Positions 2,724-25,620 of a stretch of 64,000 bases of DNA are shown in pieces. Position 1 is the stretch's first letter, and every line of letters begins with the position of its first letter. A model generated the notes under the pieces. The model searched no databases. It was not told where the DNA came from and was given only the letters and a program-made list of their open reading frames with translations. Made by a program: the position numbers and the translations under genes. The stretch lies in the IMG/VR virus record IMGVR_UViG_3300044642_001197. One strand, 5' to 3'. This stretch comes from an uncultured virus (IMG/VR IMGVR_UViG_3300044642_001197). Taxonomy: Duplodnaviria; Heunggongvirae; Uroviricota; Caudoviricetes.

Positions 2724-3025
2724 AATTCGCGGGAAGAGCCGTCGCCGTCGCTATAGAAGCTATTGCCCTCGACGGTGCTAAAGTCGAAGCCCCCTCCAAG
2801 GCCGTTGCCGGAGACCAACTGATGTGGTGTCACGTATTCTCCGCAGCCGTCACCGTGTCCGTTGCCGTAACCGTAGCCGCCGTGGTCGCAATATACGCCG
2901 ACACCGTAACCATCTCCGATGGCTTCCACAGAACCCCAAGTGTCGCCCCAACCCGGCGAGACTGACCACACGTGGAGGTCTTCGCCCATGAGTCGGGCGA
3001 GGGCTTGCTCGTGTGAGGTGGTCAT
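2720..3025 (-). CDS. leader + Gly-rich peptide family member (array A)
   Basis: MTTSHEQALARLMGEDLHVW...GSSREL; ATGA overlap with the dUTPase. Confidence 0.85.
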   Translation of the reverse strand: MTTSHEQALARLMGEDLHVWSVSPGWGDTWGSVEAIGDGYGVGVYCDHGGYGYGNGHGDGCGEYVTPHQLVSGNGLGGGFDFSTVEGNSFYSDGDGSSREL

Positions 3026-3519
3026 ACGCCGGTGCTGCCGTGACCATTGGCGCCGCGAGGTGTAGGAGGGAACTTACTTACAAGTGTGTAGGCGACTTTT
3101 GGGATGGGCATCACGATGAGCTGCGCGATGTGGTCCCCGAGCTGATACACGCGCCCCGTGCGCGGCAGCTCTCGCATCGAGACTTGGATCTCATCCGAGT
3201 GCCCGGCATCCAAAATCCCCAAGCCATTGGCCAAAAGACACCGGGTGTTGCGGATACTGCTGCGGGCAGCCACAAAGCCTACATGCCCACGGGGGATCAA
3301 CACAGCCACCCCAGTGCCGAACACATGGTCCTCTGGGTCCGCTCCCGGGAGATGGATAACTCGGTCAGCATAGAGGTTAAACCCGGCATCGTCCTCGTAG
3401 GCTTGGATGGGTGGTTTTGCGGTATCGGTCAGAAGACGGAATGGGATTTTCAGGGGCTTAGGTTTGACGAGCAAACCAGTTGTGTTGGCCAGGACGGACA
3501 GAATTTTACGGATGTTCAT
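3022..3519 (-). CDS. dut: trimeric dUTPase-family protein
   Basis: Motifs AGFNL, ARSS, GILDAGH, IAQL and RGANGHGSTG in the canonical order. Confidence 0.85.
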   Translation of the reverse strand: MNIRKILSVLANTTGLLVKPKPLKIPFRLLTDTAKPPIQAYEDDAGFNLYADRVIHLPGADPEDHVFGTGVAVLIPRGHVGFVAARSSIRNTRCLLANGLGILDAGHSDEIQVSMRELPRTGRVYQLGDHIAQLIVMPIPKVAYTLVSKFPPTPRGANGHGSTGV

Positions 3520-3791
3520 TTGTAGGTAAGGTAATTGTTGAGGTCGCGGCGCATGGATTCCTCATCAGAGCTGAGAATGAGGGTGGATACTTCATCGCCG
3601 TAGCGGCTGGGGCAGACGACGCGCCTTGAGAAGATGCGTTTGCTCGACCACCAGAAACATCGGGTGACGAGGAAGCGGTAGATCTGGTGGTGAAACAAAG
3701 CGGCGCAGCTAAAGCCGAGCCCGGCGAGTAGACAGAGAGGGAGATACAAAGAGAGCGGCATGGGTGTAAGTAGGTGTAAGCGGTCCTGCAA
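3516..3791 (-). CDS. hypothetical membrane protein
   Basis: Hydrophobic N-terminal segment; ATGA overlap with dut; start uncertain. Confidence 0.45.
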   Translation of the reverse strand: MQDRLHLLTPMPLSLYLPLCLLAGLGFSCAALFHHQIYRFLVTRCFWWSSKRIFSRRVVCPSRYGDEVSTLILSSDEESMRRDLNNYLTYK

Positions 3792-3809
3792 TAAAGGGAA
3801 GCGGGTTGC

Positions 3810-4940
3810 TTATGTGTTGACGCGGATCACTTCGCCAAACGGCGCGGTCTGGCCGCCGTAGCTTACCCAGAGCACGGGCATGTGGGGATGTGTGCCGGGG
3901 AAGCTCCCGTAAAGGTCGGTGAGAACCACCACACACATCGGGTTGAGGTTGCGTTGGGTAAGCTCCTCGAAGATCGGGGCAAAGCAGGTGCCGCCGCCGC
4001 CTTTGAGTTTCAGGGCGACACGGTCGCCGGGCACAAACTCGGTGACTTCCCGCACTCGGGCGTCACACTGGATGGTCACTAGTTTGCGGGGACGCACAGC
4101 TGCCAACACCTCCTCCGCTTCGGCCAGGAACTGCTGGAGCATGGAGTCGGGGATCGAGCCGCTGGTGTCGATGGCGAAGACGAGTTCACCAGCCGCGTCG
4201 CTTTGGAGATCGGGCAGGTAGAAGTCGGGGAGATACCGGCGATCGGGCTTGAGCCAATCGTAATCGTCCGCAGCGGACTCGGTGACAAACCTGCGCAGGA
4301 GTGTGGTCCACGCAACCTTGGGCTTCACGGCGCCGGAAGCAAGCCGCTCAAGGCAGCCCGGCGCTTTGCCCATCATCTTCGCCGCCTGCGCCGCTTGGAC
4401 CACGGCGACACCCCACTCGGATGCGTTCTGTTTGCCGCTTCCTTTGTTCCCGTCGTCCTTTTTGAACTCGCCGTAGGTGGGTTTGTCGCGGGGGCCGCGT
4501 CTGTCACCTTCAATCTGCTCCGCCTTGAGCACCGTGTAGATTTCTTCCATCCCCATCCCGGCAAACCGGGGGTCACACAAGGCCCCTTCTGGAAGCGGGA
4601 AGGGGGGATTCTCAAACGTGGCGTTGTATTCGTTGAGGAACAGGTTGACGACGTGGTCGGCTGCTTGGTTGCAGAGGTAGAGGTCACGGTGGCCCACGCG
4701 CCAGGGATGCCCGAGCGCGGGGTGCATGACTTCATGGGCGAGGACACCGCGGATGAGTCCATCGGAGAGAGTCTTGGTGAACTCAGAGTTGTAGAGAAGC
4801 ACCGTGCCGTCGGTGCAGAATGTGGGTTGGCTATTGTCCTCGGAGACCTTGAGCCGCAGGAGCAGCGAGGCGAAGAAGGGGTGGGAGAGGATGATCTCAA
4901 CGATTTGTTTTTCGACGCGTTTAAACTGAGTGGAGTCCAT
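3810..4940 (-). CDS. HExxH metallopeptidase-like + VWA domain protein (DUF2201-type)
   Basis: LAHEVMH in the N-terminal part; MIDAS motif DTSGS, GGGGT and LTD in the C-terminal part. Confidence 0.85.
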   Translation of the reverse strand: MDSTQFKRVEKQIVEIILSHPFFASLLLRLKVSEDNSQPTFCTDGTVLLYNSEFTKTLSDGLIRGVLAHEVMHPALGHPWRVGHRDLYLCNQAADHVVNLFLNEYNATFENPPFPLPEGALCDPRFAGMGMEEIYTVLKAEQIEGDRRGPRDKPTYGEFKKDDGNKGSGKQNASEWGVAVVQAAQAAKMMGKAPGCLERLASGAVKPKVAWTTLLRRFVTESAADDYDWLKPDRRYLPDFYLPDLQSDAAGELVFAIDTSGSIPDSMLQQFLAEAEEVLAAVRPRKLVTIQCDARVREVTEFVPGDRVALKLKGGGGTCFAPIFEELTQRNLNPMCVVVLTDLYGSFPGTHPHMPVLWVSYGGQTAPFGEVIRVNT

Positions 4941-6442: not shown

Positions 6443-6473
6443 GGGTGGTGTGGTTGCTGCGGAGTTAAGGGGG

Positions 6474-19613: not shown

Positions 19614-21734
19614 TTACGCTGCACCCACGTCCAAGTCGATGTGGTAGCTCGACATCCCATCAATGAGCGCCACCTTCACCAATGGAGCGTAAGCCTTTTG
19701 CCTGAATAGTTTTCGGAGTTCGCGACCGAACGACACCGGCGAATAACCCTTCAAAAGTGCGTCCGCCGACACCACCGTCGCCCGAATCGCACCCATCAGT
19801 CCCGTGGCCGTGTATTTCACCACCCGGTCACCCGTAGCCACCGCCCTTTCGCCCTCTCTCCACAGCTCCAGGATCTCCCGCATCGTCGCCGAGGCCCCGC
19901 TCTCCTTCGCCGCGTGAGACATATCCGGGTGTTTATAGGCCACCACCCCGAACCTCGCCGATCCCCTGACCTCCGCCGGGGGCACCCATTGCCTTAGCCA
20001 CGCCAAAAAGAACGGCAGCTCGTCGGCCACCATTGCCTCCTGTTCGTGGTTCGGGAGGAATTTCGGCCTCCACGAGCCGAACTTGAACATCAGGATCTTG
20101 TCCGAGAAGGTATTGTCCAAGGGCGGCAGGATCGCCATGGAATCCGGGTCCGTGTTACAGGTCAGCACGATCCGCCCGCGCCAGGGTAACTCCACCGAGT
20201 CGCGGAACTTCGGGTGATACGACACCGTGGGGTTCGCCACGTGCCGTTTGAGGGTCTCACCGAACCGGCGCCAATCGGCCTGAGTCGCCGTGGAAGTCCC
20301 GTCGTCGATTCGCCAGATCGCATTTTCCGCCGCCTGCTTGTTAAAATCCGTCTTCCCCTGCAGCAAACTACTCGCGTCCACAGAACCTCCGAGCGCCGCG
20401 CCAATGATACACCGGCTCAGAAACGTCTTCCCTTGCCCTGGCTCCCCGGCGATCGCCATCATTTGCCCCTGCTGGAGTTGTTTTGCCCGAGCCGACTCCC
20501 AGAGTCGCTTGAACCAAGCAAGGAAGTAATCCAGTTGCGAGAACCCGTTGTAAGGGGAATCGTCGAAGATATTCGCCAGGAACTCCCGAATCCACGGAAA
20601 CCGGTCCGGGTCCGCCACGTCGGCCTCCGCCATCGCCTCCTTGCGCCCGATGTTGAGGGTTCGCTCCCCGTTAATGTCCACCAGTTCCTGGGTTTCAAAC
20701 AAGAGGGGCGCCGCCATGCCCACCGATCGGGACGCCTGGACCGCGCAGAGCACCATCTCCGCTTGCGACGCGTGCGATTTCTGGGTCGCCTTGTTACTCA
20801 CCCCCAGAACTTTGAGGTGCATGATCGAATCTTCCTTGGTCCGGGGAATCCACGACCCATCCACATCCCACCAATACACCTTGCCGTCATACCAGAGGTT
20901 GTCCACGAACGCGCCGATGTGTGCCGCCTCCCACTTTTGCACGAACCCTTTGCCCAGAATATCGCCCCACGGCAAAAATCCGGCCTCGGCTCGGGACGAA
21001 TAACACACCATCCCCAAGTCCCCGACCTGACAACCCACCCGGGTAACCCCATCGTTGACCCAGAACAGCGGGCCCCGGGCGCCCACCTCAAACTTCCCCG
21101 GCCACCGCCCCGGGAATTGCCGCTCAACCTCCGCCGCGACCTCCTCGATCGGGATCGACGCGCCCTCGAACTTCACCGTCTTGGCGCACGCGGCCTGCAG
21201 CACCCACAAACCAGCCAAGTCGCTCGGTAACGGGGCACCCATCGGTTGCCAATCCGTGCCCGCTTCCCAGAGTTGCTTGAGTTCAAAGGACGCGTCATCG
21301 AGCCCCGGCAACAGGGCCTTGAGCTTCAACTCTTTTGAAGCGACCCGCATAAACCTCTCCGCAAGCTGCTTGTTGTCGCACAGGATGGGTTCGTCCAGTT
21401 CCCAGATCAACCGGGCCCCGCCGGAGAACGTCCGGGTGGTCCAGGTCGGCGGCAATGGGGCGTTGGTTGCCACGTCCAGGAGCATCTGGTCGGTGATCGC
21501 CGCGTCGTAGTCCACCACCAACCCGTGCAAGAGCTTGGCCGGGTTGGCTTCGCTGACACGCAGGGACGGGATCAACCCCTCGACGGCGCTGTAGAATGTG
21601 TGTTGGGTGGCGGGGTCCGCGCACCATTTGCGGAACGCCTCCTTGTCCTTGAACACCGGCCGGGTCACCGCCAACGGGCAGTTGGACCGGGTGGTCTGTT
21701 GGGACGCCAAGTTTGGTAGAACGAAAATCTGCAT
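19614..21734 (-). CDS. primase-helicase (AEP/PrimPol-like N-terminus, P-loop helicase C-terminus)
   Basis: VVDYD and TFSGG in the N-terminal part; Walker A GEPGQGKT, WRIDD, TCN. Confidence 0.75.
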   Translation of the reverse strand: MQIFVLPNLASQQTTRSNCPLAVTRPVFKDKEAFRKWCADPATQHTFYSAVEGLIPSLRVSEANPAKLLHGLVVDYDAAITDQMLLDVATNAPLPPTWTTRTFSGGARLIWELDEPILCDNKQLAERFMRVASKELKLKALLPGLDDASFELKQLWEAGTDWQPMGAPLPSDLAGLWVLQAACAKTVKFEGASIPIEEVAAEVERQFPGRWPGKFEVGARGPLFWVNDGVTRVGCQVGDLGMVCYSSRAEAGFLPWGDILGKGFVQKWEAAHIGAFVDNLWYDGKVYWWDVDGSWIPRTKEDSIMHLKVLGVSNKATQKSHASQAEMVLCAVQASRSVGMAAPLLFETQELVDINGERTLNIGRKEAMAEADVADPDRFPWIREFLANIFDDSPYNGFSQLDYFLAWFKRLWESARAKQLQQGQMMAIAGEPGQGKTFLSRCIIGAALGGSVDASSLLQGKTDFNKQAAENAIWRIDDGTSTATQADWRRFGETLKRHVANPTVSYHPKFRDSVELPWRGRIVLTCNTDPDSMAILPPLDNTFSDKILMFKFGSWRPKFLPNHEQEAMVADELPFFLAWLRQWVPPAEVRGSARFGVVAYKHPDMSHAAKESGASATMREILELWREGERAVATGDRVVKYTATGLMGAIRATVVSADALLKGYSPVSFGRELRKLFRQKAYAPLVKVALIDGMSSYHIDLDVGAA

Positions 21735-21765
21735 CGGCTAATTTTGTGTAGGGGTGGCTGCGGGG

Positions 21766-24700
21766 TTATTTCGTGTAGACTTTGCAAACATGCGCCTCGG
21801 CGGCCTGTGGCAGCGTGGGCATCCATGCGGGAGGCGTGCTCATGATTTTTTCGATGGCGGTGCGAGCGGCCTCCGCCGTCGCCTCGTCGACGAGGCACAC
21901 CGCTTCATCGTGCGCGTGCAGGATCAGCGGGAAACCGGCGGCTTCCAGCCGCAGCGCGCAGTCGCCAAACACATCGCGGGCAACGGCTTGGCAGCAGTTG
22001 TGGGCTATGAGAACCGGCATCCCAGGCCCGCCGCGGACAGCGAATTGATGCCGCGGGCCACAATTCACTAAGTCGTAAACCGGTTGGTAACGTCGATCGG
22101 AGTGCCCAGCACTTGCTCCCAACTCAACCCCCGTTGCAGTCGGTAACCGATGGTGGAGCGGGGGATACCCATCTTGGCAGCCAGCTCCCGCCAGTTCTCT
22201 GGGAGCCCCCATCGGACAACCCAGTTGTTCCTTTTGTTCCTGCAGTTCGTTCGGCGGGATACCCAGCGGCAATTCTGAGCTGAGTAGCCCAGCTCGTTGT
22301 TCGCCCGGTCCAAGTCCAACCCCGGAAGGTATGAAGGACCCATATCGCGCCAAAACGCGTCGAACGAGAGCCACTCCGGCGCGACTCGAATGCCACGCCC
22401 CCCGTAGTTCTTGTAAGCCTTGTGGGTGGGGTTGTTGCAGCGGGCCAGCATACTGCTCCACACGGCGAACGCCGGGTGCCGAGACATCCCATGGGTAGTT
22501 CGCTTTTGTCTCAGGTTGGCGCGGGCCAGTGGGCACTGCCTTCGACAATATGTTTGCCTTCCCCGACGGAGATCCGCTGCTGAGACCGTTGTTTGCGAAC
22601 CACAAGCGCAGCGAACCAACCACAACCTTTTGCAACCGTTTGAACCGGCTGGGGACAACACCCTCAGGTTCCCGAACGTCTGACCGGATATATTTATTGG
22701 AGTAACCATGGTGTAGTCTTGTTAACTTGTCCAAGTGGTTAATGCAACCCGCTTCAACCCAAGAAACACCGTCTGATCCTAGGAATTTATGGTCCGCCGT
22801 GGCGCGCACACCCCCCACGTCCACGGTGGGGTGCTTACCTTTATACACAAGCCCATCGTGTTGCACCCACTCCGCGCCGTCCCACACTACGTCGTCGTCT
22901 TTGATGCGATTCATCGGAATCCAACCTCTCGGGGTCAACACCTCTGTATCCCCGGACAGGCAGTTCTCCGTGAGCACGCCCCCGTGGTAGGAGACCCGCA
23001 TCAGCTTGCCCATGCGCGGCGTCTCCGCGCTCAGGCCACCGTGGTTCTTTGGATTCCTGTAACGCAGCACCCGGCCACTGGGCAGCTCAAGGGTAAATTC
23101 CTTGGAGCCGCAGCTCTTCCGGAACAACTCCTCCAGCATCGCCCAGAGCCCGGTCACCGCGTCGTTGCTTTCCCGGTATCCGCGCACCTGCGCCTCGGAG
23201 TTGACCCAGTAGGCCTTCTCCTTGGGCGGCATCTTCTGGAATTGCTCGGTGAGCACGCGCCCGTCGCGGAGCCGCTTGGTGAGGTTCTGCTGGAACCCGC
23301 GGATCTGGCCCGCCGTGACCGGGGCACCGAACACCGCTTCGTAGGTCTTCGCCGGGAGCATCTGCTTGGCGAACGTGACAAATTTCAACCAGCCGCAACC
23401 ATAGGACAGCCCGAGCACACGGGCCTTTGCCAACCGGCGCAGCTCGCCATCGACATCCTTGAGCGGGCGCGGGTCGTTGTAACCCATCGTCGACCTTGCG
23501 TGTGCCTCGTACATATCCACGCCCGTGCGCAGGGTATTGAGCGTCGGGCCGTCCCCGGCCAGCACCGCCATGACGCGCGGTTCGATGTTTGCAAGGTCAC
23601 AGACCACCAGCAACTTGCCTTCCGGCGCCACGATCCGCTTACGCAGGTCCACGTAACCCGCGACCCCCTGCGGGAGCGCCTCCTTTTTCTTCACCGCCGT
23701 CTTGGCGGCTTCAATCACATCCGGGTGCTCAATCACCCCGCCACCGCTAAAAAACGTCGCGTCCCTTGGTAGGTTTTGGCAGTTACCAGTAACGTGGATT
23801 CGGTCGTGGTAACGGACTAGGAACATTCCCGACGGCACCTGCGGGCAGAATACTTTTCCGCAGTAGGAAACCTCTCGGACATCACGCTCCGGGGTGATGT
23901 GGCTTTGTGAGCCTGCCTCCTTGAAATACACATCCCACCGGTGCTTGTAGAGGTTGAGTGAAACTGTTAGCCCGTGTAGGTGCGCGAGGGTTACGACCCA
24001 TTCGGCCTGCTCACGTTCAGCGGAGTAGAAGATAGTCGCGCCGCTATTCTGGTGGGTTGAGCCGTCCCAGTGTTGGAGTTCGTCGAGCACCACCAACGCC
24101 TGCCTGTGGGAGAGATCCATTACCCACGTTGAAAAACCCTTGGTCATCCATTCGGGCCGGTCGGCCGACTTCACGTAGTAGTGAGTGACCCCATTCGGCG
24201 AGACCGTTTCAGAATACGGGCAACGGATTTCAGCCAGAAGGGCCCGAAGTCTCTCTATTTTACGCATCTTCTTGAAACCGAAAGACACGCGCCCCTTCTG
24301 GTTAATGCTACCATCAGCCGCCAGCGCGACAAGAAACGCCAGTTCCGCGTCGCTTCGCTCCATACCACATTCATCGAAGACGCCGCTCGTCGGAATCCGG
24401 CTCAGCCGGGAACCAACCAAAGACCTCGCAGGACGCTCCGCGAGCTGGTCCTTGCTGTTGAAGTGCACCACACGGTGGTCGGGGGTTGCCTTGATCCGAA
24501 CTCTCGCGTTGTCCACGACGATCATCGTTCCGCTGTGCTGGTGGGATACTTTTCCGGCGCGGACGAACGATAATCGACCGGTGGGTTCCCATTGCATGAT
24601 GGGCGAGAGTTTTTCGTCCCATACATCAATTCGAACCCACCCATCCGGGGTCAGAACCTCGTGATCCCCAGTGACGCAGTTAAATCCCTCGGCGCCGCTC

Positions 24701-25620
24701 CACCGTCCGGTGTGCGCCCCGTGGTATTTCAGCGAGTAAGGCATCCACCCGTCCTCTTTGGTGCGGCGTTGCACGGTGCGGAATTTCTGCAGCATCGTGT
24801 TGATCCGCCGGTAGTGGCCCATGGCCGCTGCGAACGGTAGCCGCGACCCGTGTTCCTCCAACCACGCGTCGAACTCCTCAGAATCCTTGGCCAGGGATTT
24901 CGGGGGTTCCACCCCGTGTTTCCGGCACTCGGCGGCCATCGCCTTGGGACTGAGCACCTTTGCGTCGTCGCCCTCCGCCCACGGAATCCGTTTCCGGCAT
25001 TCCCAGAGCTGCAGCTCCAGTAGTCGCACATCCTCATCCACACCCGCCTTGTCGATGGGCAGCCCCTTCCAGCACATCTCCCGGGTGTGGGTCGAGAGTT
25101 TGCGCTCCCACTCCGGCCATTTCGAGCCGTGCTCGCGCCAGATCCGCAGACACAGCTCCGAGTCCTTGAGCGCGTAATCCTGCACCTCCTTGCGGAACTC
25201 CGGGGTCATCGACTCCCAGGACTTGCCTTTCATGCCGTCCCGCACGTCCTTGGAAATCTCCAGGCTAAAGAGCGACGCGCAGGCGTTCTTCAAGCTGCGC
25301 GGCAGCCCGAGATACACCACGAGGTCCGCCGTGTCGTACCACTCCGCAGGGGCCACATGCCCGGCGATCACTCCGAGTTCTTGGAGCCGCAAAGTCACAG
25401 CTTGGTCGAACGTCGCGTTGTGCGACACCCACACCTGACCGTGGATGCAGTCCCAATCAAAATCTTTTGGGGAACCCACGAACGAGTTCCCATCGTCCCC
25501 GACGATCGACACCATGTAGGCGTCAAATTCCGGGTGATGCGTGTAACCCCAGTTCCCAAGGTCCACGATCGAGTAGTCCTTGGAGTAGTAGGTTTCAAAA
25601 TCGACGGCGTAAGTCTTCAT
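21766..25620 (-). CDS. family A DNA polymerase with two inteins
   Basis: Exonuclease motifs DFET, HNATFD, YALKD; HTGRWS; motif A DLANIEPR; motif B R..AK...LGLSYG; motif C HDE. Confidence 0.92.
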   Translation of the reverse strand: MKTYAVDFETYYSKDYSIVDLGNWGYTHHPEFDAYMVSIVGDDGNSFVGSPKDFDWDCIHGQVWVSHNATFDQAVTLRLQELGVIAGHVAPAEWYDTADLVVYLGLPRSLKNACASLFSLEISKDVRDGMKGKSWESMTPEFRKEVQDYALKDSELCLRIWREHGSKWPEWERKLSTHTREMCWKGLPIDKAGVDEDVRLLELQLWECRKRIPWAEGDDAKVLSPKAMAAECRKHGVEPPKSLAKDSEEFDAWLEEHGSRLPFAAAMGHYRRINTMLQKFRTVQRRTKEDGWMPYSLKYHGAHTGRWSGAEGFNCVTGDHEVLTPDGWVRIDVWDEKLSPIMQWEPTGRLSFVRAGKVSHQHSGTMIVVDNARVRIKATPDHRVVHFNSKDQLAERPARSLVGSRLSRIPTSGVFDECGMERSDAELAFLVALAADGSINQKGRVSFGFKKMRKIERLRALLAEIRCPYSETVSPNGVTHYYVKSADRPEWMTKGFSTWVMDLSHRQALVVLDELQHWDGSTHQNSGATIFYSAEREQAEWVVTLAHLHGLTVSLNLYKHRWDVYFKEAGSQSHITPERDVREVSYCGKVFCPQVPSGMFLVRYHDRIHVTGNCQNLPRDATFFSGGGVIEHPDVIEAAKTAVKKKEALPQGVAGYVDLRKRIVAPEGKLLVVCDLANIEPRVMAVLAGDGPTLNTLRTGVDMYEAHARSTMGYNDPRPLKDVDGELRRLAKARVLGLSYGCGWLKFVTFAKQMLPAKTYEAVFGAPVTAGQIRGFQQNLTKRLRDGRVLTEQFQKMPPKEKAYWVNSEAQVRGYRESNDAVTGLWAMLEELFRKSCGSKEFTLELPSGRVLRYRNPKNHGGLSAETPRMGKLMRVSYHGGVLTENCLSGDTEVLTPRGWIPMNRIKDDDVVWDGAEWVQHDGLVYKGKHPTVDVGGVRATADHKFLGSDGVSWVEAGCINHLDKLTRLHHGYSNKYIRSDVREPEGVVPSRFKRLQKVVVGSLRLWFANNGLSSGSPSGKANILSKAVPTGPRQPETKANYPWDVSAPGVRRVEQYAGPLQQPHPQGLQELRGAWHSSRAGVALVRRVLARYGSFIPSGVGLGPGEQRAGLLSSELPLGIPPNELQEQKEQLGCPMGAPRELAGAGCQDGYPPLHHRLPTATGVELGASAGHSDRRYQPVYDLVNCGPRHQFAVRGGPGMPVLIAHNCCQAVARDVFGDCALRLEAAGFPLILHAHDEAVCLVDEATAEAARTAIEKIMSTPPAWMPTLPQAAEAHVCKVYTK
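21997..22962 (-). mobile_element. intein 2 of the DNA polymerase (322 aa)
   Basis: TEN|CLSGDTEVLT...TADH...VYDL...IAHN|CCQAVARD. Confidence 0.88.
22068..22709 (-). CDS. HNH homing endonuclease nested out of frame inside intein 2
   Basis: GQTFGNL.V, W..RCACG, HGMS, W.SM..RC, YGGRGI, LDR.NN..GY...NCRW...N..N. Confidence 0.85.
   Translation of the reverse strand: MVTPINISGQTFGNLRVLSPAGSNGCKRLWLVRCACGSQTTVSAADLRRGRQTYCRRQCPLARANLRQKRTTHGMSRHPAFAVWSSMLARCNNPTHKAYKNYGGRGIRVAPEWLSFDAFWRDMGPSYLPGLDLDRANNELGYSAQNCRWVSRRTNCRNKRNNWVVRWGLPENWRELAAKMGIPRSTIGYRLQRGLSWEQVLGTPIDVTNRFTT
23782..24678 (-). mobile_element. intein 1 of the DNA polymerase with LAGLIDADG domain (299 aa)
   Basis: GFN|CVTGDHEVLT...TPDH...LAADGS...HWDGS...VTGN|CQNLPR. 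Confidence 0.88.

Follow-up and report, generated by a model that had tools for sequence, protein, structure and literature searches.

An intein in a phage family A DNA polymerase gene with a predicted HNH-like nuclease gene nested in another reading frame

Can an intein keep its nuclease in a reading frame other than that of the protein that it interrupts, and, if so, how is such an arrangement held together? The question is raised by a stretch of 64,000 nucleotides from an uncultured Caudoviricetes virus (IMG/VR record IMGVR_UViG_3300044642_001197), hereafter the window, in which a family A DNA polymerase gene carries two inteins. Within the second one, intein 2, the same strand read one base off holds a second gene with its own start and stop codons, which encodes a predicted nuclease (Table 1). 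A previous sequence-only reading of this DNA had proposed a mini-intein-like Hint domain that flanks a junk read-through, with the nuclease in the other frame, and this layout was borne out by a structural model of the intein, by the amino-acid identity calculated frame by frame and by the open polymerase frame in 65 of 67 related nuclease genes. The arrangement is real and widespread in phages.

Table 1. Positions in the window of the polymerase gene, its inteins and the elements in and around the nested gene (a slash marks a splice junction; pLDDT, predicted local distance difference test score of the structural model).
Feature	Position	Strand	Description
Family A DNA polymerase gene	21766..25620	minus	1284 codons; single open frame across two inteins; from the list of open reading frames, Pfam and the homologue alignment
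Intein 2	21997..22962	minus	322 codons in the polymerase frame; site ...GGVLTEN/C...HN/CCQAVARD
Hint N-terminal part	22729..22962	minus	Intein residues 1-78; blocks A and B, C1 and TADH; pLDDT >90 (1-70), 72 (71-80)
Read-through linker	22099..22710	minus	Intein residues ~85-288 in the polymerase frame; pLDDT <50; no family match
Hint C-terminal part	21997..22095	minus	Intein residues 290-322, VYDLVNCGP...IAHN; pLDDT 93-95
Nested nuclease gene	22068..22709	minus	213 codons, +1 frame; ATG at 22709, TAG at 22070-22068
Putative translation initiation region	22710..22729	minus	20 nt, G-poor, A/C-rich, without a Shine-Dalgarno word
Repeated 14-nt word GGGTTGCATTAACC	22737..22750	minus	Ends 28 nt before the nested ATG; candidate 'operator motif'
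Intein 1	23782..24678	minus	Polymerase residues 315-613; endonuclease-like centre in frame; outside the overlap

Intein 2 and the gene nested within it

The polymerase open reading frame (ORF) matched the Pfam family DNA_pol_A (E 1.4e-12) and could be aligned with 31 homologues. The first codon of intein 2, TGC (22962-22960), follows ...GGVLTEN, and the last one, AAC (21999-21997), precedes CCQAVARD. Its splice residues are C1, T55-A-D-H58 (the TxxH of block B), H321-N322 and a Cys at the +1 position. C1, T55, H58, H321 and N322 were invariant columns in an alignment of 27 related inteins (A4), as were V295, D297, N300, G302, P303 and F307 in the C-terminal part of the Hint domain, and C1, N1208 and the +1 Cys (C1209) were invariant among 32 polymerases (A2). 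An AlphaFold model that was built with the 27 related sequences had a pLDDT above 90 at residues 1-78 and 290-322 and below 50 at residues 85-288. When this model was searched with Foldseek, nearly all of the rows were inteins or related Hint-type domains, and the top ones were gp41-1 (E 2e-3), MchDnaB-1, Spl DnaX and Ssp DnaB, with a probability of 1.00 and E values from 2e-3. Moreover, the profile of the intein alignment matched NEQ068 (E 3.4e-6), PI-MtuI (E 2.8e-5) and the Spl DnaX mini-intein among the PDB sequences, with E values that ranged up to 1e-4. The polymerase-frame reading of intein 2 matched no Pfam family; its PHROG and NCBIfam matches were weak (E 0.0015-0.009), all lay in the first 71 residues and none was central, and the curated NCBIfam intein model, at E 0.009, was under its cut-off. 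Because the splice residues are invariant, the Hint halves are ordered and the middle has neither a fold nor a family match, intein 2 is, judged from the alignments and the model, a class 1 intein whose centre is junk when it is read in the polymerase frame. From the conserved residues and the need for an intact polymerase we infer that it undergoes protein splicing. The coordinates of intein 2 and of the nested ORF in the sequence-only reading were exact, the splice motifs that it described as intact (C1, TADH and HN/C) all fell on invariant columns, and the centre that it called featureless corresponds to ~205 codons with a pLDDT below 50 and no family match.

The frame of the nested gene is closed by a TAA four codons 5' of its ATG, which gives a stop-to-stop interval of 22068..22721. 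Each polymerase codon begins on the third base of a nuclease codon, which places the nuclease at +1 with respect to the polymerase and, conversely, the polymerase at +2 with respect to the nuclease. As for protein families, the nested ORF matched phrog_374 (E 2.5e-52) and phrog_3377 (E 7.2e-45), both named 'HNH endonuclease', and had no match in NCBIfam; the HNH name thus comes only from the PHROG families. The searches with hidden Markov models in both frames, which had been suggested together with the first description, differed between the two frames: the nested ORF found phrog_374 and the central polymerase-frame reading found nothing. The GC content at the three codon positions was 0.52/0.55/0.69 in the nuclease frame, 0.69/0.52/0.55 in the polymerase frame over the same bases and 0.63/0.44/0.82 in the exteins. 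The composition of the nuclease frame, with 0.69 at its third positions (GC3), is therefore coding-like, whereas that of the polymerase frame in this region is unlike coding sequence.

A further peculiarity of the nested gene is that its polymerase frame contains no stop at all; the third frame contains four. In a resampling test of 20000 trials, in which the amino acids of the nuclease were kept and the synonymous codons were redrawn, the polymerase frame stayed open in 0.2% of the trials with the codon usage of the window (mean 5.5 stops) and in 0.015% with that of the gene itself (mean 7.9 stops). The open polymerase frame is beyond chance, since resampled genes seldom stay open, and the claim that ~640 nucleotides are free of stops in two frames stands.

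The arrangement among phages and the selection on its two frames

No match to the polymerase region was found when 50,697 phage records were searched at the DNA level, and a scan of viral contigs with the single polymerase sequence found no relative. The relatives were found by an alignment-based scan of IMG/VR, which gave 557 pattern matches, of which 434 were confirmed with tblastn and the best 80 loci were kept; this sample was picked by the intein motif and so under-samples intein-less alleles. A protein search additionally revealed many polymerases, 25-45% identical, with an intein in the same place. When the window nuclease was searched in the three forward frames, a discrete ORF was found in 79 of the 80 loci, and the lone exception (L082) is cut by the end of its contig. 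In 78 loci the nuclease took the +1 frame relative to the polymerase, in L051 it took the +2 frame, and in no locus was it in frame. Three loci that were first met through the nuclease alone (L001-L003) turned out to have the same polymerase-intein arrangement. Among proteins that contain the nuclease in frame, three were longer (423-515 aa) and none of them had a polymerase or intein domain, which, being a blank, is weak evidence. In the 50,697 phage records, the best tblastn matches of the nuclease fell under coding sequences (CDSs) annotated as 'DNA polymerase', in the phages APSE-1 to APSE-7 (44% identity), Shewanella phage SFCi1 and the Caulobacter phages GB2A, RW, RLK and KcrB. One record per group was checked for frame, namely APSE-1, RLK (L086) and SFCi1 (L087); the nuclease was at +1 in each, and the polymerase frame had 0 stops versus 3.6-7.2 expected. 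In the RLK and SFCi1 records, the nested nuclease is without annotation.

Several loci depart from the common form. L017 and L018, whose N-exteins are 58% identical to each other, are fractured polymerase genes (3010-3975 in both): the N-terminal polymerase ORF stops 84 residues into the intein (IntN), at a TAG in one locus and a TAA in the other, the nuclease begins at a strong AGGAGG-ATG start, and the C-terminal intein piece (IntC) is 29 residues long, with an ATG that overlaps the TGA of the nuclease. The penultimate intein residue of both is Ser and not His. L032 (3217-3669), which at 51% identity over the best segment is among the closest to the window polymerase in the scan, has a mini-intein of 151 residues in which the last ~50 nuclease codons survive in the +1 frame; as its sequence indicates, it is a deletion derivative. 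Finally, L051 (1232-4030; L082 is a cut copy) and L030 (403-4152) have a related intein at a second site (motif B, ...LG/C...HN/C...) with a related nuclease in the +2 frame; in L030, both inteins are present and the nuclease of each is out of frame.

The stop test was extended to 67 distinct complete nuclease genes including that of the window, with the expected stops taken from the codon usage of each gene; partial matches (L019, L032 and L051), a gene with an ambiguous base (L058) and duplicates were left out. There was no stop in the polymerase frame of 65 of the 67 genes, where resampling gave a mean expectation of 6.35, and the third frame had a mean of 11.6 observed stops. The probability of an open polymerase frame had a median of 0.001 over the 67 genes and was 0.125 at the largest. 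The two exceptions were L017 (5 stops) and L018 (4 stops), i.e., the fractured polymerase genes. Free-standing homologues, which are L004 and the extra copies in L036, L054 and L059, had 10-14 stops in the corresponding frame.

The two frames also differ in how they are conserved. In 10 pairs that were less than 10% diverged, the differences at nuclease codon positions 1, 2 and 3 were 0.017, 0.022 and 0.089, and in all pairs they were 0.42, 0.37 and 0.605. Over the same columns, the amino-acid identity for the nuclease frame was 0.48, and the polymerase and third frames gave 0.26 and 0.27, respectively. Since the substitutions concentrate at third codon positions, the nuclease protein is, by this comparison of sequences, under purifying selection, and the polymerase frame appears to be selected only to stay open. 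That the junk linker of the polymerase can be aligned among relatives at all reflects the conservation of the nuclease that is encoded in the other frame. A linker that is free of stops and unconserved is what would be expected if ribosomes must reach the C-terminal part of the Hint domain and the extein, after which splicing discards the linker.

It could be argued that the whole layout is an artefact in which two compensating indels conceal an ordinary intein with an in-frame HNH domain. This test had been set beforehand, and nothing was found in favour of an artefact. Contigs from three lake-water metagenomes of other studies covered 21700-22736 and 22850-23184 at an identity of at least 99% with 0 gaps, so that the nested ORF was spanned in full, ends included; a fourth run, possibly the source of the window itself, covered the whole region at a depth of 161 and was the only one to cover 22737-22849. 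Because gap-free contigs from three other studies cover the nested ORF and its ends, two compensating assembly frameshifts are excluded. Moreover, 79 of 80 independent viral loci share the out-of-frame layout, as do finished genomes of cultured phages, the nuclease frame has one stop just before its start codon and another one before block F, and an open 'wrong' frame would have to be a coincidence with a P of ~0.002, 65 times over. We consider an artefact to be next to impossible.

The predicted nuclease, its expression and its mobility

In our interpretation, the endonuclease domain of intein 2 would have been replaced by a separate nuclease gene, placed one base off on the same strand between blocks B and F. 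Ribosomes that translate the polymerase would cross this gene in the wrong frame and produce a disordered linker of ~205 residues, after which the two Hint halves would fold together and excise the linker with the rest of the intein, leaving an intact polymerase. The nuclease of 213 aa would be made separately by internal initiation at the ATG at 22709 on an A/C-rich leader, and it probably cuts intein-less polymerase alleles near TEN/CCQ, so that repair would copy the intein and the nuclease in, i.e., homing. We hold this combination of a working class 1 intein, a nuclease gene between blocks B and F, internal initiation and homing to be highly probable; its splicing, internal start, nuclease activity and target are what we infer from the features of the locus and its relatives.

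The model of the nuclease (pLDDT 86) suggests three parts: an N-terminal Cys-rich beta domain in which C34, C36 and C59 are invariant, a beta-beta-alpha-Me-like core (approximately residues 73-162) and a C-terminal helix-turn-helix (HTH), for which several family members gave weak Pfam HTH matches, in the window nuclease at residues 172-205. Among 48,161 solved chains, the best match of the model was the HNH restriction enzyme PacI (Z 6.5, rmsd 2.3 A over 76 residues of 73-162). PacI is reported to begin cleavage with a tyrosine and to cut DNA without a His general base. The profile match to I-HmuI (E 0.036), like the structural match to PacI, was modest, and a phmmer search of the nuclease against the PDB sequences gave nothing at E 1 or better. 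The family shares the motif L-(D/E)-R-x-(D/N)-N-x3-Y-x3-N-C-x-W...N-x-R, in which Y142, N146 and N158 are invariant, and (D/E)134-R135 align with the D-H of the HNH motif of I-HmuI. The His of this motif is the general base in I-HmuI.

Several observations weigh against the interpretation given above. With regard to the nuclease, the Z score of 6.5 for PacI is within the range that the comparison tool calls common, Foldseek found no match of the nuclease model at E 0.001 or better, none of 59 family members matched a Pfam HNH model at E 0.05 or better, and Arg135 occupies the place of the HNH His of I-HmuI in 59 of 59 members, which makes the motif non-canonical. The window copy has Ala at residue 110 (22380-22382), where 57 of 59 relatives have Cys. 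With regard to expression, 56 of the 68 related nuclease starts that were listed carry a Shine-Dalgarno (SD)-like word and the window start has none, and the RNA folding of 22680-22780 around the nested start was ordinary (z -0.63). As for mobility, the identity of the nuclease correlated with that of the extein (r 0.61), and much of the spread of the nuclease may be vertical and not due to recent homing. The earlier description of a 'complete HNH endonuclease' thus holds in part: the ORF has its own ATG and stop and matches phrog_374, but an invariant Arg stands in place of the first His and the Pfam HNH models do not match. We describe the product as a predicted HNH-like protein.

The change at residue 110 could mean that the nuclease of the window is impaired, and, together with the N-terminal cluster, in which CxxxC replaces the usual CxC, it may point to a weakened metal site in this copy. 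It is conceivable that the nested ORF of the window is a decaying relic, i.e., that the intein splices and the nuclease is no longer made or active, which would make it a mini-intein in the making. Such a course would agree with the missing Cys and the odd spacing of the cluster, with the start that has no SD-like word upstream and with the decay that is seen elsewhere in the family, where L032 has kept only the end of the gene. However, the 213 codons of the window gene are intact with a GC3 typical of coding sequence, all 23 residues that are invariant in the family are present in it, the purifying selection across the family is strong and the leader of the gene resembles real gene starts of this phage. 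A relic is, in our opinion, improbable.

Turning to the start of the nested gene, SD-like words were found at three of 25 gene starts in the window. The leaders of its genes have 14% G versus 30% in the background, are A/C-rich and have recurring CTACAC-like words, which hints at a host that initiates without SD pairing. The leader of the nested ATG had a composition score of 4.2; among the 1443 ATGs of the window this lies in the top 2.2%, and no other of the 61 sense-strand ATGs in the polymerase gene scored as high. In the relatives, the nuclease ORF begins immediately behind the conserved block B (...DHEVLT), whose codons often supply the SD-like word. A scan of 21500-23500 for sigma-70-type promoters found 0 sites, and the 17-mer directly 5' of the nested ATG is not repeated within the window. 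Judged by the composition of its leader, internal initiation of the nuclease is plausible. In four relatives (L007, L010, L012 and L014), an SD-like GAGG lies in a short inverted repeat 15-25 nt upstream of the nested start, examples being GAGGTATCCTC and AGGGAGGTAGTCTCCCT; the repeat may fold into a hairpin and so hide the ribosome binding site of the nuclease gene.

A different route to the protein would be programmed ribosomal frameshifting, which would fuse the nuclease to the N-extein and the N-terminal part of the Hint domain and make internal initiation unnecessary. The +1 position of the nuclease in 78 of 79 loci is what a +1 slip would enter. Against it, every locus has a stop 0-47 codons before the chosen start (four in the window), the start codon heads the homology in 67 of 67 genes, SD-like words precede most of the listed starts, the fractured forms give the nuclease an AGGAGG-ATG start of its own and one locus uses the other frame. 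Frameshifting seems to us very improbable, and a separate start remains the preferred explanation.

The motif copy that was claimed 28 nt upstream of the nested ATG is indeed there. GGGTTGCATTAACC has eight copies in the window at no more than two mismatches versus 0.34 expected, a comparison that is biased because the word was chosen from a k-mer scan of the same site. Words that resemble GGGTTGCWTNAACC, with a GGTT...AACC inverted-repeat frame, occur at 6471, 15863, 22737, 24300, 27990, 29823, 30152 and 32472. Their contexts are mixed; two or three of them are likely intergenic (15863, 32472 and 29823), and one lies in the coding sequence of intein 1. From sequence, nothing ties the GGGTTGCATTAACC word to the regulation of the nested gene.

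The mobility of the element can be judged from its distribution. The close relative P0002, which is 67% identical over the aligned part, has intein 1 and lacks intein 2, and in the available part of their work Rouil et al. (2020, PMC7313666) described differential loss of the polymerase intein among the APSE phages. The mean identity of the nuclease was 0.49 versus 0.34 for the 220 flanking extein residues, and some pairs were discordant, such as L013/L063, with 0.67 for the nuclease and 0.28 for the extein. This pattern of identities fits a mix of vertical descent and transfer. It also bears on a second possibility, which is that the nested protein owes its retention to a task other than homing, such as cutting the intein-less polymerase genes of rivals in co-infection, or only binding DNA. 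Competition between phages that is mediated by nucleases is an idea in the literature. The better conservation of the nuclease than of the extein flanks, its presence in nearly all of the sampled intein copies, the Arg for the catalytic His in all 59 members and the C-terminal HTH would agree with such a role. On the other hand, the sample was selected by the intein motif, which under-represents intein-less alleles, and P0002 is an intein-less close relative; the differential loss in APSE is what a selfish element would show, and the best structural match is PacI. We regard a job other than homing as unlikely, and homing remains our preferred explanation. An origin by the invasion of a free-standing gene is plausible because both free-standing homologues and fractured forms exist.

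The insertion points of the inteins also varied. In the intein 2 family (L005-L084), at least four registers were found in one five-residue stretch of a polymerase motif, i.e., ...xEN/CxQA, ...GGKL/CENxT, ...YGGK/CVENx and ...TENL/CQAA, and it seems that, from lineage to lineage, the insertion point of intein 2 has moved by one to four codons. Intein 1 of the window, which matches TIGR01445 intein_Nterm at residues 315-385 (E 5.9e-7), sits after ...GAHTGRWSGAEGFN with a +1 Cys (alignment A1). The homologous intein 1 of P0002, P0006 and P0013 lies 11 residues earlier (...GAH/C...N/TGRWSG, with a +1 Thr), and the insertion point is thus shifted.

Known systems and the meaning of the overlap

Inteins of this kind have been recognised only recently, in preprints of 2025-2026, the available parts of which are compared here. 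Gosselin, Arsenault and Gogarten (bioRxiv 10.1101/2025.01.02.630785) described actinophage inteins with antisense endonucleases or, in the case of an endonuclease VII-like gene, with an endonuclease in 'frame 3', and called such arrangements rare and the frame-3 case new. An out-of-frame LAGLIDADG endonuclease in a cyanobacterial dnaX intein was described by Phillips et al. (bioRxiv 10.64898/2026.09.14.751524), who credited the first proposal to Gorbalenya in 1998. The non-canonical inteins of both preprints are like that of the window in that the endonuclease ORF lies out of frame between the splicing blocks, the extein frame has no stop, no structure is recognisable in the in-frame reading and the endonuclease frame is under purifying selection; the proposed origin, a free-standing gene that invaded a mini-intein, is also the same. 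Their nucleases are endonuclease VII-like in frame 3, antisense LAGLIDADG or VSR-like in actinophage proteins and LAGLIDADG in dnaX. In contrast, the intein of the window interrupts a family A DNA polymerase, and its nuclease is an HNH-like protein of PHROG 374 with an Arg for the first His, usually at +1 and at +2 in one relative. Its family is also large, with the 434 confirmed IMG/VR stretches, whereas the described non-canonical inteins are called rare.

The closest annotated case is APSE-1, a Hamiltonella phage (NC_000935.1), in which the same nuclease, 44% identical over 98% of the query, lies at +1 in the polymerase CDS, within an intein of the same family and site region. Its nested gene P46, inside P45, is annotated as 'HNH endonuclease' in RefSeq, with a start (locus position 2711) that is later than the start of the homology (a GTG at 2483). 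None of the papers that were listed by full-text searches of the literature was found to identify P46 as the out-of-frame endonuclease of the intein itself. Similarly, these searches found no text that describes a family A polymerase intein and such a nuclease as an overlap, with the supplements of the preprints not covered by these searches.

Two other kinds of arrangement resemble parts of the locus. In the fractured genes of Dassa et al. (2009, PMC2677866), a free-standing endonuclease gene lies between the halves of a split intein; this is the form of L017 and L018, and similar 3' overlaps were described in the available text. The window differs in that its polymerase is unbroken, the polymerase frame runs through the nuclease gene and splicing would be in cis, and the endonucleases of the fractured genes are GIY-YIG and Vsr-like (PMC2677866), whereas that of the window is HNH-like. 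The methylase of ShiLan (Arsenault et al. 2025, PMC11855218), as far as the available text describes it, also contains, in an open host frame, an HNH gene that lies on the same strand but out of frame and has a start and a stop of its own, and internal initiation without a detectable ribosome binding site was proposed for it. However, ShiLan has no splicing domain and the junk peptide stays in the host protein, whereas the insert of the window is flanked by the Hint halves and would be removable.

What is new is the family A polymerase intein family, which is large, old and experimentally accessible. Its out-of-frame state may be more than a temporary stage before the nuclease comes into frame or the gene splits: all 79 nuclease-bearing loci are out of frame and the linker has stayed free of stops over deep divergence (extein identity ~34%), for which reason a stable and selected architecture, with an Arg-for-His beta-beta-alpha-Me nuclease whose dose and timing are uncoupled from polymerase synthesis, can be suggested, albeit as a doubtful possibility. 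If it were true, the uncoupling of nuclease dose and timing from polymerase synthesis would itself be selected, and the nuclease might serve the phage, for instance against intein-less rivals in co-infection.

The family has a wider meaning in several respects. A same-strand overlap of ~640 nt has been held for a very long time by two kinds of selection, one for a protein and the other only for the lack of stops, and the linker frame is constrained only against stops because splicing discards whatever the linker encodes. For genome annotation, gene callers that bar nested genes on the same strand miss the nuclease, as happened in the RLK and SFCi1 records. Within one gene family there is a large natural series: some members have the contiguous overlap, in one or the other alternative frame, others are fractured into split-intein forms, and one is a mini-intein that retains a remnant of the nuclease. 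This series informs the gain and loss of endonucleases by inteins and the origin of split inteins. The cultured carriers, i.e., the Caulobacter vibrioides phages, Shewanella phage SFCi1 and APSE, make the initiation of the nested gene, the splicing and the activity of an HNH-like protein without the His testable.

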